DNA of 64,000 nt from Eledone cirrhosa (lineage: Eukaryota). This document shows positions 14,849 through 64,000 of the stretch, piece by piece. Each line of letters begins with the position of its first letter. The stretch's first letter is position 1. The stretch lies in the NCBI GenBank assembly GCA_964016885.1, contig OZ024742.1, positions 25,420,001-25,484,000 of the forward strand. Reading direction: 5' to 3'. Under the pieces are notes generated by a model. It saw only the letters and a program-made list of their open reading frames with translations. It was not told the origin of the DNA and ran no database searches. The position numbers and the translations under genes were made by a program.

Positions 14849-14949
<101 letters not shown>

Positions 14950-15103
14950 TTACAGGTACACATACATATATGCACGTATCAGTTTAGCGGACGCTTATTA
15001 TAACGCCGCTTTGTTCGTTTGTGAACAAACTGAACAGCCTGAATTTATGCCGTACGGTGTTAAGGCAACCACGTCACCTTTTTTGTAAACACTGACACAG
15101 GAA

Positions 15104-15144
15104 CGATGTACTAGTTTCAAGCTTGTTAGCTATCATCAGCACCG
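15104..15144 (-). ncRNA. Minimal type I hammerhead ribozyme
   Basis: cggtg-CTGATGA-t agc taacaa gct t-GAAA-ctag-TA-catcg on the minus strand. Confidence 0.9.
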
Positions 15145-15355
15145 TATACCCTTCTGCCAGATAGTTGAACGTTCGAAAGTATATACTTTCCTTATGAAAT
15201 TAACGGCTAAGCAGCCTAATTTGCATATCGAGTGAGTTAAGACGGTCAGGCATACCGAAAACGATAAGTTGATATAAAATGAAAACGAAATTTCATTTCT
15301 CACTCTTAGTACGGCACTTACTAAACTGATACGTGCATATATGTATGTGTACCTG

Positions 15356-15401
<46 letters not shown>

Positions 15402-15638
15402 TGTTACTGTACGTCTGTATACATATATGTATGTACGTATACATACATAGTTACATTTAAGTAAGTGCCGTACTAAGAGTGAGAAATGAAATTTCGTTTT
15501 CATTTTATTTCAACTTATCGTTTTCGGTATGCCTGACCGTCTTAACTCACTTGATATGCAAATTAGGCTGCTCAGCCGTTAATTTTCATAAGGAAAGTAT
15601 ATACTTTCGAACGTTCAACTATCTGGCAGAAGGGTATA

Positions 15639-15679
15639 CGGTGCTGATAATAGCTAACAAGCTTGAAACTAGTACATCG
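15639..15679 (+). ncRNA. Minimal HHR copy with G8A lesion (CTGATAA)
   Basis: Identical to 16124-16164 except at core position 8. Confidence 0.75.
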
Positions 15680-15830
15680 TTCCTGTGTCAGTGTTGAACA
15701 AAAAGGTGACGTGGTTGCCTTAACACCGTACGGCATAAATTCAGGCTGTTCAGTTTGTTTACAAACGAACAAAGCGGCGTTATAATAAGCGTCCGCTAAA
15801 CTGATACGTGCATATATGTATGTGTACCGG

Positions 15831-15886
<56 letters not shown>

Positions 15887-16123
15887 TGCTACTGTACGTC
15901 TGTATACATATATGTATGTACGTATACATACATACTTACATTTAAGTAAGTGCCGTACTAAGAGTGAGAAATGAAATTTCGTTTTCATTTTATTTCAACT
16001 TATCGTTTTCGGTATGCCTGACCGTCTTAACTCACTCGATATGCAAATTAGGCTGCTCAGCCGTTAATTTTCATAAGGAAAGTATATACTTTCGAACGTT
16101 CAACTATCGGGAAGAAGGGTATA

Positions 16124-16164
16124 CGGTGCTGATGATAGCTAACAAGCTTGAAACTAGTACATCG
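16124..16164 (+). ncRNA. Minimal type I hammerhead ribozyme
   Basis: cggtg-CTGATGA-tagctaacaagctt-GAAA-ctag-TA-catcg. Confidence 0.9.
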
Positions 16165-16413
16165 TTCCTGTGTCAGTGTTGAACAAAAAGGTGACGTGGT
16201 TGCCTTAACACCGTACGGCATAAATTCAGGCTGTTCAGTTTGTTTACAAACGAACAAAGCGGCGTTATAATAAGCGTCCGCTAAACTGATACGTGCATAT
16301 ATGTATGTGTACCTGTATGTATATATATGTACGTATACATACATACTTATATTTAAGTAAGTGCCGTACTAAGAGTGAGAAATGAAATTTCATTTTCATT
16401 TTATTTCAACTTA

Positions 16414-16990: not shown

Positions 16991-17504
16991 AATCATTTCC
17001 AATACTACCCATCCACATGTCATTTCTAATATAGTAAAATATTTCTCCCATCTAATACAGAAAGAAGTAGTCCCCCAATTCACTGCATTATCACCATTCA
17101 TCAGGATGTTATGGGTGCTTGTACGGGTTAGATGTGTTGTTGTCACAATCCAGTGCTAGACAACCATATCAGAGTTGGTTTGTATAGATGTGTGCCCTTG
17201 CTAATGTCGCCCACTTCATGGCATGTACCAAGTTTTTATTTTGTGGTACCACCATTATCACATGACAAGGTGGACCGGGTGCATTTTATTGTAGCCTCAG
17301 CATTAACATTTTACAGAGTGCACTGGCTTTATTTTGTTCTGGCACCAGTACTTCCTCTTTCTAGTGTGAGCCGAGTGCATTTTATTTTCGTGTATATATA
17401 TATATAATTGGTGTGGGATGCTTAAAGCGTCCGTAACCGGTAGGCCGTTTGAGCACACGATGCTCTTACAGAGCAGGGTATGATATCACATAAGAAACGG
17501 AGAA

Positions 17505-17806
17505 TCAGTGGTGTGACGAATACAATTTATTAAGGATATTACAATCGTTTCTTTGGCGACCAGCTCGAGGCTTGATCGATGTAATGATCGAACCTGACTC
17601 TAAAATCGCAAGATCCTCAGATACGTCTCGATTCTACGAAGCAGAGTTTCTAAATACATGGACACACTGCTTCGTAGAATCGAAACGTAACTGAGGACCT
17701 TGCGATTTCAGAGTCAGGTTCGAGCATTACATCGATCGTGCCTCGAGCTGGTCGCCAGAGAAACGATTGTAATATGTCTAATAAATTGTATTCGTCGCAA
17801 CACTGT
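17505..17806. mobile_element. Fold-back element with two HHRs (family C): 17535-17627 minus, 17684-17778 plus
   Basis: ~140 bp inverted arms. Consensus gacgtat-CTGAGGA-tcttgcga...tcgccaga-GAAA-cgattg-TA-atatgtc. Confidence 0.8.
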
Positions 17807-17851
17807 TTCTTATGTCATATATATATATATTTATATATATATGTATGTATT

Positions 17852-18799: not shown

Positions 18800-20140
18800 C
18801 AAAGAACGGAGATCTCTCTAACACCAACAACTACAGGGGGATCTCACTAACGTCACTTGTGACAAAGACCCTCAACAGGATGATTCTTAATAGGATCCAG
18901 CCTGAGATGGAGAAGAAGCTCAGGGACAACCAGAACGGCTTCAGAGAGGGAAGATCAACCCCCATTCACATCCTGATGCTGAGGAGGATATTAGAGGGAG
19001 CTAGAGCAAAGTGCCTTCCTGCGGCCATGGTTTTCATTGACTTTAGGAAGGCCTTTGATTCTGTGGACCGTCACTGCCTGATGAAGATCTTACAGGCTTA
19101 TGGAATCCCCAAGAAGATAGTGGACCTGATATCACTGCTCTACACCAACACCAAAGCCCAAGTCATTACACCTGATGGGATGACAGTTCTTTGAGATACT
19201 GGCTGGAGTGCTCAAGGGAGATGCATTGGCTCCCTGCCTTTTTATCATCGTAGTGGACTATTGTATGCGCTTTGCACTGGAGAAATACCAGGACTCAGGC
19301 TTTACTGTAGCAGGAGACTTAAGGCGAAAAAGCAGGAGAGTTAAGGCGAAAAAGGTATCAGATGCAGAATTTGCTGACGACGTAGTTTTAATGACAAATA
19401 CAGTGAAGGAGACAGAAGATTTGATGCAGGAGGATGAGACTGTGTCGATCAGTGTGCGGCTGAGAATGAATTAGACTAAAAGAAAATATCTGGTAGAGAA
19501 TGTTGAGAAGCAAGAGGGGATCACTCATGTAGGCGGGAAGCCGTTAGAATTGGTTGAGGACTTCCTGTATTTGGGAGCAAAGATTGGAAATACGGAAGAT
19601 GATGTGGTTGAGAGGAAGAGCAAAGCCTGGGCGGCGTGCCGCAGCTTGAGATCGGTGTGGAAGTCTCGGACCTTCGTAAAGACCTGAAAATCCGCCTCTT
19701 CATTGCTGTAGTGGATTCTGTGCTGCTGTACGGGTCTGAGACTTGGACACTGACCAAGAAACTCACTCAGATGGTGGATGGGTGCTACACGAGAATGCTG
19801 AAGATGGCTCTGAACATTAATCAGTATACACTGAGGATGAAAAACTCAGAGCTGTATGGGAGACTCCCAAAAGTCTGCTCAAAAGTGACACAGAGGAGAC
19901 TGAGGTTAGCTGGACATGCTCACCGACATCCAGAGTTGACATTGCACTCAGTGCTCCTGTGGGAGTCCCTAAATGGACACACTGGAAGAGGAAGACCAAG
20001 GTTAACGTATGTTGATGCGCTAAGGACAGACACTGGTCTGTTGGAGACGCAGGACATGGCAGCGATAATGAGGGACAGAGACCGCTGGAGAGAAATCGTC
20101 CATGGATCTCGGGAATTTTACCCGCCCTAGAATAGAATAT
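18800..20140 (+). pseudogene. Decayed non-LTR RT (RTE/RTEX-like LINE), 5'-truncated
   Basis: NYRGISL, QNGFR, FIDFRKAFDS, FADD, LLYGSETW, RRLRLAGH, GRPRLTY across frameshifted ORFs. Ends tagaatagaat and is inserted next to (TA)n. Confidence 0.9.
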
Positions 20141-33344: not shown

Positions 33345-33829
<485 letters not shown>

Positions 33830-34221
33830 GGAAAAAATGAAACGAAATTTCATTTCCCACTCTTAGTACGGCTGTTACTTAAATATAAGTATGTACACGT
33901 ACATACATATATGTATACAGACGTACAGTAGTATGTATATATATATATACATACATGCATACATATATATATATATATGAACGTATGTATTCACCGAACA
34001 TTTATTATAATGCTCGGTGTGTTTGTAAACAAACATCCCGTATTAAGCCGTAGTGTCTAGCAACCAACGTTGCTCGTTTGTTCAACACTGACAAAGGAAC
34101 GCTGTACTAGTTTCAAGCTTATTAGCTATCGATTAACCCACTCGATATGCAAATTGGGCTTCTCAGCCGTTAATATGCATAAGGTAAGTATATACGTTCA
34201 ACAATATGGCAGGAAGGGATA

Positions 34222-34262
34222 CGTTGCTGACGATAGCTAATAAGCTTGAAACTAGTACAGCG
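34222..34262 (+). ncRNA. Minimal type I HHR
   Basis: cgttg-CTGACGA-tagctaataagctt-GAAA-ctag-TA-cagcg. Confidence 0.9.
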
Positions 34263-34643
34263 GTCCTTTGTCAGTGTTGAACAAACGAGCAACGATGGTT
34301 GCTAGACACTACGGCTTAATACGGAATGTTTGTTTACAAACACACCGAGCATTATAATAAATGTTCGGTGAATCCATACGTACATATATATATATATACA
34401 TGTGCATGTATATATATATACTTACTACTGTACGTCTGTATACATATATGTATGTACGTATACATACTTATATTTAAGTAACAGCCGTGCTAAGAGTGGG
34501 AAATGAAATTTCGTTTCATTTTTACCGTTTATCGTTTTCGGTGCACCCGGCCGATTAACCTACTCGATATGCAAATTGGGCTACTCAGCCGTTAATATGC
34601 ATAAGTTAAGTATATACGTTCAACAATCTGGCAGGAAGGTATA

Positions 34644-34684
34644 CGTTGCTGACGATAGCTAATAAGCTTGAAACTAGTACAGCG
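34644..34684 (+). ncRNA. Minimal type I HHR
   Basis: Same sequence as 34222-34262. Confidence 0.9.
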
Positions 34685-35065
34685 TTCCTTTGTCAGTGTT
34701 GAACAAATGAGAAACGATGGTTGCTAGACACTACGGCTTAATACGGGATGTTTCTTTACAAACACACAGAGCATTATAATAAATGTTCGGTGAATCCATA
34801 CGTACATATATATATATGTGTGCATGTATGTATATATATATACACACTACTGTACGTCTGTATACATATATGTATGTACGTATACATACTTATATTTAAG
34901 TAACAGCCGTGCTAAGAGTGGGAAATGAAATTTCGTTTCATTTTTACCGTTTATCGTTTTCGGTGCACCCGGCCGATTAACCTACTCGATATGCAAATTG
35001 GGCTACCCAGCCGTTAATATGCATAAGTTAAGTATATACGTTCAACAATCTGGCAGGAAGGTATA

Positions 35066-35106
35066 CGTTGCTGACGATAGCTAATAAGCTTGAAACTAGT
35101 ACAGCG
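35066..35106 (+). ncRNA. Minimal type I HHR
   Basis: Same sequence as 34222-34262. Confidence 0.9.
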
Positions 35107-35310
35107 TTCCTTTGTCAGTGTTGAACAAATGAGAAACGATGGTTGCTAGACACTACGGCTTAATACGGGATGTTTCTTTACAAACACACAGAGCATTATA
35201 ATAAATGTTCGGTGAATCCATACGTACATATATATATATGTGTGCATGTATGTATATATATATACACACTACTGTACGTCTGTATACATATATGCATGTA
35301 CGTGTACATA

Positions 35311-35345
<35 letters not shown>

Positions 35346-60807: not shown

Positions 60808-60886
<79 letters not shown>

Positions 60887-60887
<1 letters not shown>

Positions 60888-61236
60888 GTTATTCCGGGTT
60901 GAATCGGAGGTAACCACAGTAAGTAAGGTACTCAATACATAGCAGAGTATAATAGTTTTAATATAGATGAGATTCTACAGGACTAGAACTGTTTCATTCA
61001 TTAGAAATCATCAGGAATCTGGGTATCAAAAAATAAATATGGTATTTATAGGTCTCTACAAGTGGTAGGAGAGGGTGGGGAGTGGGATGGGTGCAGGCAC
61101 CCATCCCACTCCCCACCCTCTCCTACCACTTGTAGAGACCTATAAATACCATATTTATTTTTTGATACCCAGATTCCTGATGATTTCTAATGAATGAAAC
61201 AGTTCTAGTCCTGTAGAATCTCATCTATATTAAAAC

Positions 61237-61240
<4 letters not shown>
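60887..61240. mobile_element. Fold-back element with two canonical HHRs (family K): 60970-61020 minus, 61171-61221 plus
   Basis: ~140 bp near-perfect arms around 61096. agattc-CTGATGA-tttctaatgaat-GAAA-cag ttctagtc ctg-TA-gaatct. Confidence 0.88.

Positions 61241-62213: not shown

Positions 62214-62250
<37 letters not shown>
61237..62250. repeat. ~1 kb degenerate (TA)n/(TATG) tract
   Basis: Directly visible. Confidence 0.95.
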
Positions 62251-62254
<4 letters not shown>

Positions 62255-62498
62255 GTAGAACACTGGAAGGTAATATCCGTAGTGATAGAGCACTCAGTCC
62301 ATGGGACGAGTTAGGTAGAAGTGGTTACACAACAGTTAGTTCACCATATCGAGAACAATTGCGGATCCTCAGCTCGTAATGGGTATGGTTATACGGTTGT
62401 CCCTCCTGTTCCGTATAACCATGCCCATTTACGAGGTGAGGATCCGCTAAGGTGAAACAATTGTTCTCGGTATGGTGAACTAACTGTTGTGTTACCAC

Positions 62499-62503
<5 letters not shown>
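62250..62503. mobile_element. Fold-back element with decayed minimal HHR (family N, 62432-62469)
   Basis: Arms 62316-62396 / 62411-62503. Consensus cgag-CTGAGGA-tccgctaaggt-GAAA-caattg-TT-ctcg. Confidence 0.7.
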
Positions 62504-62887: not shown

Positions 62888-63098
62888 GACACACACACAC
62901 ACATATATATATATGTATGTATCTATATACATATGTGTGTATGTATTTATATACATATGTATGTATGTATTTATATATATATGTATGTATTTATATATAT
63001 ATATGATATGTATGTATTTATATATATATATTATATGTATGTATTTATATATATGTATGTATTTATATATATGTATGTATTTATATATATATATATAT

Positions 63099-64000
63099 AA
63101 ATTGATGAGCAGAACAAACAAACATTAAACAATCCTTTAAATAAATTAAAAAATAATTTAAATATCTACCTGTTCATAATGCTATTACCGGCGGTTTCCA
63201 TCCACAAAAGATTGGAAATTCAGAGAATCTCCAATGGAAAGTAGATTTCATCAGATAGCTATTTCCTTTCTATAGGACATATGTCCCATGGTCCACAAAT
63301 ATAAGGCTAACTACCAGCTCGTATGAGTTATAGCCGTTAAAGGACCCATACGTGACCTGGCCACGAGAGCAAGCGGGAATATTACAGACATGTTGATGGC
63401 TTGGCTGCTAAAAAAATAGCAGTAAGCAACAACGAATTTTTTTCTCTACATAGATTGGAGAATATATAAAAATGAGGTAAATATCTCATTGAGTACTAAG
63501 TACACATTGAGATATATAGGGTGTCTATAATATAATTGTTGTTCTATGGTACTAATTAGAGATACCAGAACTATAAAAATTGATGATCTATGTAGAGAAA
63601 AAAATTCGTCGTTGCTTACTGCTATCTTTTTAGCAGCCAAGCCATCAACAAGTCTGTAATATTCCCGCTTGCTCTCGTGTCCAGGTCACGTATGGGTCCT
63701 TTAACGGCTATAACTCATACGAGCTGGTAGTTAGCCTTATATTTGTGGACCATGGGACATATGTCCTATAGAAAGGAAATAGCTATCTGATGAAATCTAC
63801 TTTCCATTGGAGATTCTCTGAATTTCCAATCTTTTGTGGATGGAAACCGCCGGTAATAGCATTATGAACAGGTAGATATTTAAATTATTTTTTAATTTAT
63901 TTAAAGGATTGATTAATGTTTGTTTGTTCTGCTTATCAATTTTTATAGTTCTGGTATCTCTAATTAGTACCATAGGACAACAATTATATTATAGACACCC
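63099..64000. mobile_element. Retrozyme-like element (family O): inverted 478 bp unit followed by a circularly permuted direct unit; HHRs 63181-63259 minus and 63782-63860 plus
   Basis: gctat-CTGATGA-a atctac..attgga gattc tct gaatt tccaat..gtggat g-GAAA-ccgccgg-TA-atagc. Confidence 0.88.

Follow-up and report, generated by a model that had tools for sequence, protein, structure and literature searches.

A dispersed 478-nt hammerhead repeat in the genome of Eledone cirrhosa, with two fixed ends and probably written by a Penelope-like enzyme

The DNA analysed, hereafter the window, is a stretch of 64,000 nucleotides from the 3.0-Gb genome of Eledone cirrhosa (contig OZ024742.1, positions 25,420,001 to 25,484,000, forward strand) and is rich in AT and microsatellites. 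At its right-hand end lies a repeat made of two head-to-head arms set in (TA)n, each arm containing a predicted type I hammerhead. Unit positions are numbered from U1 at window position 63586; U1-472 together with a 6-nt linker make up a unit of 478 nt, the length given in the original prediction. P1 and P2 denote the two putative start sites described below. The following features were identified.

62907-63098 (no strand): degenerate (TA)n microsatellite, the left target flank, read from the sequence; the P2 arm runs into it
63094-63455 (minus): inverted arm, segment A (U1-362); start site P2 (about U356-362) forms its outer end and overlaps the TA flank
63181-63259 (minus): type I hammerhead copy 2, identical to copy 1; predicted cut 63186/63185
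63456-63461 (minus): 6-nt linker U473-478, a seamless join between B's end and A's start; sibling copies have an equal 6-nt gap and short-read contigs bridge it
63462-63585 (minus): inverted arm, segment B (U349/350-472) of the preceding turn; contains a hairpin at U418-452 (63516-63482) and an unused P1 site
63585-63586 (no strand): head-to-head arm junction, gapless, about 1 nt shared
63586-64000 (plus): direct arm U1-415, continuing beyond the window to U472 (64057), which is start site P1, then (TA)n
63782-63860 (plus): type I hammerhead copy 1, from motif and computed fold; missed by Rfam
63866-63929 (plus): long AU-rich hairpin U281-344 predicted by computed fold only, its end just 5' of P2
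63935-63947 (plus): internal, passed-over P2 start site U350-362 (149 exact P2-to-(TA)n ends genome-wide)
63948-64000 (plus): start of the 'tail' of about 110 nt (U363-472), carried by the P1 end only (144 exact P1 ends genome-wide)

The segment order described in the original prediction, B-A on the minus strand and A-B on the plus strand, was borne out, the minus arm reading U349/350-472 (63585/63584-63462), linker (63461-63456) and U1-362 (63455-63094). The plus arm measures 472 nt, one turn minus 6, and the P2 (minus) arm about 491 nt, one turn plus about 13. Together they form an inverted repeat of 362 nt that is 98% identical, with mismatches at 7 of 362 A positions (one inside the TA overlap) and at 3 of 123 B positions; all ten differences lie outside the hammerhead, in agreement with the claim that each A holds an identical motif. 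Positions 63945-64000 had been taken as the reverse complement of 63518-63573; the pairing stands, but the exact partner is 63519-63574, with 1 mismatch. The element does pass the end of the window, as had been noticed, and stops 57 nt further on, at 64057, in (TA)n. Further units or an ORF were looked for beyond position 64000 and neither was found: the 8 kb downstream of the locus contained no third unit, no return to segment A and no RT or endonuclease frame. The locus itself has no tandem array and no ORF, and an RT plus GIY-YIG frame was likewise absent from the window. Contigs from three short-read runs of unknown kind span the B-linker-A junction; these represent at most one sample, possibly the assembly's own, and speak to the presence of the 478-nt family only.

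Copy 1 of the hammerhead has a 5-bp stem I formed by 63782-63786 with 63856-63860, CUGAUGA at 63787-63793, an extended stem II at 63795-63841, GAAA at 63843-63846 and a 3-bp stem III, with the predicted cut in GUA/AUAGC at 63855/63856. It is of type I, with an extra A after CUGAUGA and an unbranched stem II of 48 nt; where the original prediction had described stem II as branched or extended, only the extension holds, the computed fold giving 6 bp, a 5x5 loop and an 11-bp hairpin. The base of stem II consists of an A-U pair plus an extra G instead of G10.1-C11.1, and the 9-nt segment of helix III is self-complementary except for its central C. Rfam returned no hammerhead at the gathering score and none at E up to 10. 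Across 183 complete copies in the genome, stem II keeps its pairing through compensatory two-sided changes: pair 212/254 occurs as C-G in 90 copies and as U-A in 73, pair 224/242 is G-C in 99, G-U in 50 and A-U in 28, and the pair in the place of G10.1-C11.1 is A-U in 148, G-U in 12, C-G in 10 and G-C in 5. As the copies are not independent, these counts reflect a few selected changes in source elements and not 183 tests. A209, the extra base after A9, is present in 182 of the 183, and the sole common variant of the conserved core lies at N7, which we take to be a free position. The 96-nt hammerhead motif folds at a z of -1.8 only. For the whole unit (GC 34%, longest stop-free frame 65 aa), the computed circular fold of the 478-nt monomer reaches -116 kcal/mol against -94.7 +/- 6.0 for shuffled sequences (z -3.6; 0 of 40 shuffles), and the minimum-energy computed circle does not form the hammerhead. 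An intron-like stretch at U287-363 was considered and dropped, since the single copy deleted there (L067) ignores the splice sites.

Exact matches to the 27-nt hammerhead core numbered 232 genome-wide, against 0 for the reversed control, and these counts together with the long inverted repeat show that the anatomy is not due to chance. A DNA search for the unit gave 1875 first-look candidates, 40 of which were scored, and 198 distinct family loci were mapped. Private divergence of the copies has a median of 1.6%, and 46 haplotypes were distinguished among 117 tracks. The family is young and dispersed, the locus being one of its copies, and the genome-wide copies support the proposal of a retrozyme-like family with a permuted 478-nt monomer and a type I hammerhead. 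Whereas segment A does not recur downstream of the locus, partial tandems exist elsewhere, the longest arm in the family being 971 nt, so that only one of the two observations named as refuting the original prediction was made. Two exact cores in tandem were found at 12 loci, none of which has a third; with exact patterns, no master array of at least three units was detected in the first 100 of the 232 core matches or at these 12 loci. Terminal direct repeats were not visible in the arm maps of the family. Rare allele combinations at U426/430/445, in the hairpin U418-452 (window 63482-63516, minus strand), occurred in 11 tracks, only in the terminal monomer of P1 arms (11/132) and in 0 upstream monomers; possibly they are errors or re-priming just after the start.

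The outer ends of family copies enter (TA)n and sit at two fixed sites about 110 nt apart, P1 at U463-472 and P2 at U356-362. Each is preceded, about 10 nt to its 5' side, by a long predicted hairpin, and each carries a CUCAU...UUUUUAUA-like motif; the exact junction to the TA flank shifts by a few bases, and the inner 5' ends vary freely. The patterns used for exact P1 and P2 ends demanded (TA)n, whereas the core-match and DNA searches did not. The P1 set comprised 98 copies, being the first 100 of the 144 exact matches with one triplicated copy collapsed (two of the three L107 copies left out, as were nine loci outside the listed contigs). An inverted P2 arm was present in 59 of these and a very short P2 arm, recognised by eye, in 3 more, giving 62 P1+P2 copies; 5 had an inverted arm ending elsewhere, 31 were single, and there was no head-to-head P1+P1 copy, an absence with a p of about 1e-11 under free choice of ends. 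The P2 set (n=108), which overlaps the P1 set, held 57 P2+P1 copies, 5 P2+P2 rows corresponding to 3 real loci (L059 and a double count of L291 were discounted), 5 others and 41 single copies, the latter still including the duplicates L273 and L274. At the head-to-head junction the arms overlap by 0-6 nt in most copies (47/59), and arm lengths in two-armed copies are uncorrelated (rho 0.12, n 59). Twin priming of the L1 type with contiguous arms was ruled out, as the arms share sequence and meet at an inner junction that varies.

These end statistics already contradict an origin of the repeat as a DNA-level palindrome, be it through fold-back repair, a miniature inverted-repeat DNA transposon or an assembly fold-back, with the hammerhead incidental. 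A nearly perfect 362-nt inverted repeat inside a microsatellite-rich region is what such an origin might leave, but the outer ends are fixed and unlike each other, the inner junctions variable, and among the 98 copies 31 have a single arm, with 5' ends that are ragged; moreover, some of the ten arm differences at the locus are family polymorphisms, and stem II covaries. We regard a palindrome of this kind as extremely improbable. At polymorphic sites, the arms of one insertion differ in 50 of 881 comparisons (5.7%) compared with 35.8% between loci, and in a larger set in 5.0-7.1% compared with 36.4%. The common arm haplotype fits either one RNA or one source per insertion, between which it does not discriminate; conversion between the two arms could contribute too. 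P1 arms of two-armed copies stop at the P2 site in 9 cases against 4.26 expected (p 0.03, window chosen post hoc), as would be expected if both primers sometimes share one molecule.

A Neptune fragment given by a motif scan led to a young Neptune-type Penelope family with intact 784-aa frames containing RVT_1 and, at the C terminus, a GIY-YIG domain, in which all 150 endonuclease matches scored were at 98-100%. The clade label follows from a zinc-finger-like motif before GIY-YIG, as described in PMC8557442. Copies of this family have a (TA)n target, a 40-nt tail and a seamless end-to-start junction, and in 20 of 21 two-armed copies an end with the tail is paired with one lacking it. Since junction, tail pairing and target are shared with this autonomous family, permutation and inversion belong to the Penelope mechanism. 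Penelope insertions have been described with a partial tandem, an inverted 5' copy and a one-sided tail (PMC8557442; PMC3846280), and a Penelope element studied in vitro showed two internal start sites and priming on both strands, with a dimer predicted (PMC11167929). The B-A/A-B order at the locus follows from two fixed RNA start sites plus 5' inversion, the standard form of a Penelope insertion. The original prediction had reasoned that both junction orders require a tandem or circular template; a longer-than-unit or circular template is upheld, but the order is not evidence for a circle, because the autonomous Neptune family has the same seamless junction and end rule without a canonical hammerhead.

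Several observations concern the Neptune elements themselves. The young family (L194-L237; L226 = G000:C18:6376500-6385000) has many intact frames, with tandem copies at a 4.7-kb period in L224; a degenerate hammerhead (UUGAAAA...GCAAC CGG UA), and no canonical one, lies about 170 nt before the short end, and several truncated copies have a common start some 200 nt ahead of that end. In a second, older Neptune family (L317-L336), a minimal hammerhead of the U3-A8 core type is located about 200 nt before the end, the cut context GGUA/AUAG is the same as in the 478-nt unit, and an internal (TA)n precedes the tail. At L080:1221-1799 four TA bases connect a P2 end with the final 200 nt of a Neptune copy, through nested insertion or template switch; this was not counted as proof of a partner, because Neptune 3' pieces with an identical starting point occur at other loci too and have the same target. 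At L031:3619-5200 RT-like sequence follows an N-terminal GIY-YIG; this fragment is possibly a Naiad-type element.

Retrozymes are reported to be related to Penelope pLTRs (10.64898/2026.07.22.740005), and the unit might itself be the truncated 3' end (pLTR) of a hammerhead-bearing autonomous Penelope family. Most Penelope hammerheads are described as truncated single motifs or opposite-strand pairs 100-700 bp apart (PMC4209133), which agrees with that idea, as do the position and cut context of the minimal hammerhead in the second Neptune family. Long arms, however, return to U478 and not to an ORF (arm maps; 198 distinct loci), the Neptune coding pieces in the vicinity of copies were inserted separately, on the far side of (TA)n, and no stop-free frame in the unit exceeds 65 aa; we consider a pLTR fragment improbable. 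Compared directly, the 3' regions of the two Neptune families matched the unit no better than shuffles did, 52 and 78 of 200 shuffles scoring as high.

The 5' ends of the arms bear on the templates. Among single P1 arms, 9 of 31 begin at U269-282, the predicted cut site, against 0.87 expected (p 4e-7); the best of 478 scanned windows falls in this region, and a control window with the same ATAGC start gave 1 against 0.98 expected. The exact genome-wide count for cut-site 5' ends is 3 versus 0. Seven of the nine copies are about 200 nt long and two about 680 nt, as expected from RNA cut at the first hammerhead or only at the upstream one, and they span several haplotypes and thus do not represent one amplified sub-element. 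No excess at the cut site was seen in single P2 arms (3/41, 1.76 expected) or in P1 arms of two-armed copies (3, with 2.05 expected), and short TA overlaps favour some 5' stops as well. The pile-up of single P1 arms suggests that linear templates cut by the ribozyme are at least one of the routes used, and the excess of copies starting at the predicted cut site is likely to be a trace of ribozyme cutting in the living animal.

Other arms are longer than one unit (23 of 98 P1 arms and 7 of 59 P2 arms). It is unlikely that every copy arose by rolling reverse transcription of a 478-nt circle, the cut-site 5' ends being pauses at the ligation scar. Such a circle would account for arms of up to 971 nt in a genome with 12 two-core loci and none with three, for the agreement in haplotype between the two passes within one arm (28 of 356 comparisons differ) and for the stability of the computed circular fold, and circles have been demonstrated for coral, mussel and axolotl retrozymes (PMC7229834). 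P2 arms also tend to stop after one full turn, in 4 single copies against 0.71 expected (p 0.006) and in 3 two-armed copies against 0.52, but these windows were picked after looking and coincide with a TATAG overlap, and a second set of two-armed P2 arms gave 2 against 0.95 expected. A ligation scar should halt both passes alike, yet P1 arms halt at the cut site in 9 of 63 first passes and in 3 of 4 second passes (Fisher p 0.016, small numbers). Differences between upstream and downstream monomers are shared by siblings at U426 (L021, L023, L025, L151) and at U445 (L023, L025, L040, L045), which a linear two-unit source predicts, although both positions are hairpin hot spots. Comparison of same-monomer with different-monomer tracks (5.0% versus 6.0-7.1%) does not separate a circle from a linear source.

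Conversely, there may be no circle at all, the templates being read-through transcripts from partial tandems in the genome or from a hidden master array, whether or not a slow hammerhead cuts them, as in autonomous Penelope elements. The seamless junction at a 4.7-kb period in the young Neptune family, which lacks a canonical hammerhead, is in keeping with this, as are the length peaks at about 200 and 680 nt, and insertion in vitro did not need ribozyme cutting (PMC11167929). Linear copying, however, only shortens, yet arms cross two hammerheads, and exact matches revealed no source of at least three units, although the assembly could lack such an array or contain it in diverged form; an exclusively linear origin seems to us somewhat unlikely. 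We read the templates as a mix of linear and longer-than-unit RNAs, and a 478-nt circle is a plausible template at about even odds.

Taking these lines together, we interpret the repeat, with a probability of about 0.85, as a protein-free, permuted 478-nt hammerhead repeat inserted in (TA)n as two head-to-head arms with two fixed ends, likely written by a Penelope-like RT-endonuclease, probably of Neptune type. In the proposed sequence of events, the hammerhead would cut read-through transcripts at GUA/AUAGC; a Penelope protein, probably a dimer, would cut both (TA)n strands, and of the two 3' ends one would prime at P1 and the other at P2, on RNA from one source. Each cDNA would halt at a variable point and the two would be joined head to head with 0-6 nt of overlap. 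Templates would be mixed, comprising cut linear RNAs with 5' ends at the cut and longer-than-unit RNAs, the latter being, with roughly equal chances for and against, 478-nt circles released from two-hammerhead loci. At the locus each enzyme would have gone round the unit about once (472 and 491 nt), leaving the order A-B on one strand and B-A on the opposite one. A more far-reaching version is tentative, and we lean against it: that the copies record a whole life cycle, in which germ-line cutting sets the template 5' end, two-hammerhead loci release the 478-nt circle, and one dimeric Penelope enzyme binds a single RNA at two repeated signals 110 nt apart and copies it into both sides of the same break, both enzymes having completed one turn at the locus.

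On sequence grounds the 478-nt repeat is best classed as a putative new family of animal non-LTR retrozymes, that is, of non-autonomous Penelope-like elements. The unit shares with animal non-LTR retrozymes (PMC7229834; 10.64898/2026.07.22.740005) a short, non-coding, low-GC sequence (34% here), one type I hammerhead, head-to-tail repeats, a monomer with a stable computed fold and co-occurrence with Penelope-like elements, and its length falls within the 51-972 bp range of the 2026 survey (10.64898/2026.07.22.740005). Head-to-tail repeats with two complete hammerheads are found in the family (12 loci) but not at the locus, where the hammerheads are on opposite strands. In contrast to the retrozymes described in those sources, the family consists of dispersed insertions of one to two turns with inverted arms and not of long arrays, has an extended stem II without G10.1-C11.1 and shows no pLTR homology to the two Neptune families. 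In the same survey, in vitro cutting failed for 8 of 9 predicted retrozymes (10.64898/2026.07.22.740005).

Like Neptune-clade EN+ Penelope-like elements (PMC8557442; PMC3846280; PMC4209133), the insertions show 5' truncation, a partial tandem, an inverted 5' copy, a tail at one end and a microsatellite target, but the unit has no ORF and its tail is about 110 nt compared with the usual 30-40. The minimal hammerheads of Penelope elements (PMC4209133) are likewise of type I, with a helix I of 4-5 bp, which is 5 bp in the unit, a long helix II, an additional base following A9 and a helix III that is nearly palindromic, whereas the unit lacks the G10.1-C11.1 pair and has a helix II of 48 nt. In the Poseidon element PAc of the green anole (PMC11167929), too, two internal start sites downstream of the hammerhead define the tail, the target is AT-rich and both strands are primed. 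PAc differs in being autonomous; no reads were found that begin or end where it is cut, and in vitro it did not depend on cutting, while single P1 copies of the present family pile up there. Opposite-strand hammerhead pairs 100-700 bp apart, and circles as longer-than-unit templates, were noted or proposed in 2014 (PMC4209133). The retrozyme class, the architecture and the Penelope link are thus already in print, and what is gained is mechanistic detail and not a new system. Our literature search, to which most subscription journals were closed, came across neither an account of cut-site 5' ends nor one of counted end pairing, although supplements may bear on both.

If the interpretation is correct, a template 5' end set by cutting would distinguish the family from the one Penelope element studied in vitro. 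Retrozyme movement, the origin of inverted Penelope ends and hammerhead cutting in vivo are called open in published work, and the family offers countable footprints: a near-strict pairing of long end with short end, a common arm haplotype and 5' ends at the cut site. The unusually long tail (110 nt) makes the two start sites easy to separate, so that the 478-nt unit could serve as a test substrate in vitro.

Further hammerhead repeats occur in the same window, indicating that the pattern is common in such genomes. At 33824-35320 there is a hammerhead repeat with a 422-nt period, three tandem motifs (34227, 34649, 35071) and an inverted 5' arm, a layout of Penelope type. A relative of this 422-nt family (73-76% identical) is located at 14913-16402, with a period of about 480 nt and one inverted and two direct copies; in its middle motif CTGATAA replaces CTGATGA. 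Head-to-head hammerhead palindromes in (TA)n, belonging to two other families, were found at 17450-17820 and 60886-61240, the first with a long stem II. A short near-palindromic insert between (TA)n tracts at 62249-62503 includes a degenerate hammerhead-like stretch ending in GAAAC. Frames at 215-1417 and 19612-20130 resemble decayed LINE fragments, presumably of RTE type; those submitted gave no Pfam match. Downstream of the locus (L021:7198-9585) lies a 2.3-kb array of (AGT/GGT) type in which four frames are open for about 780-820 codons, probably a minisatellite.
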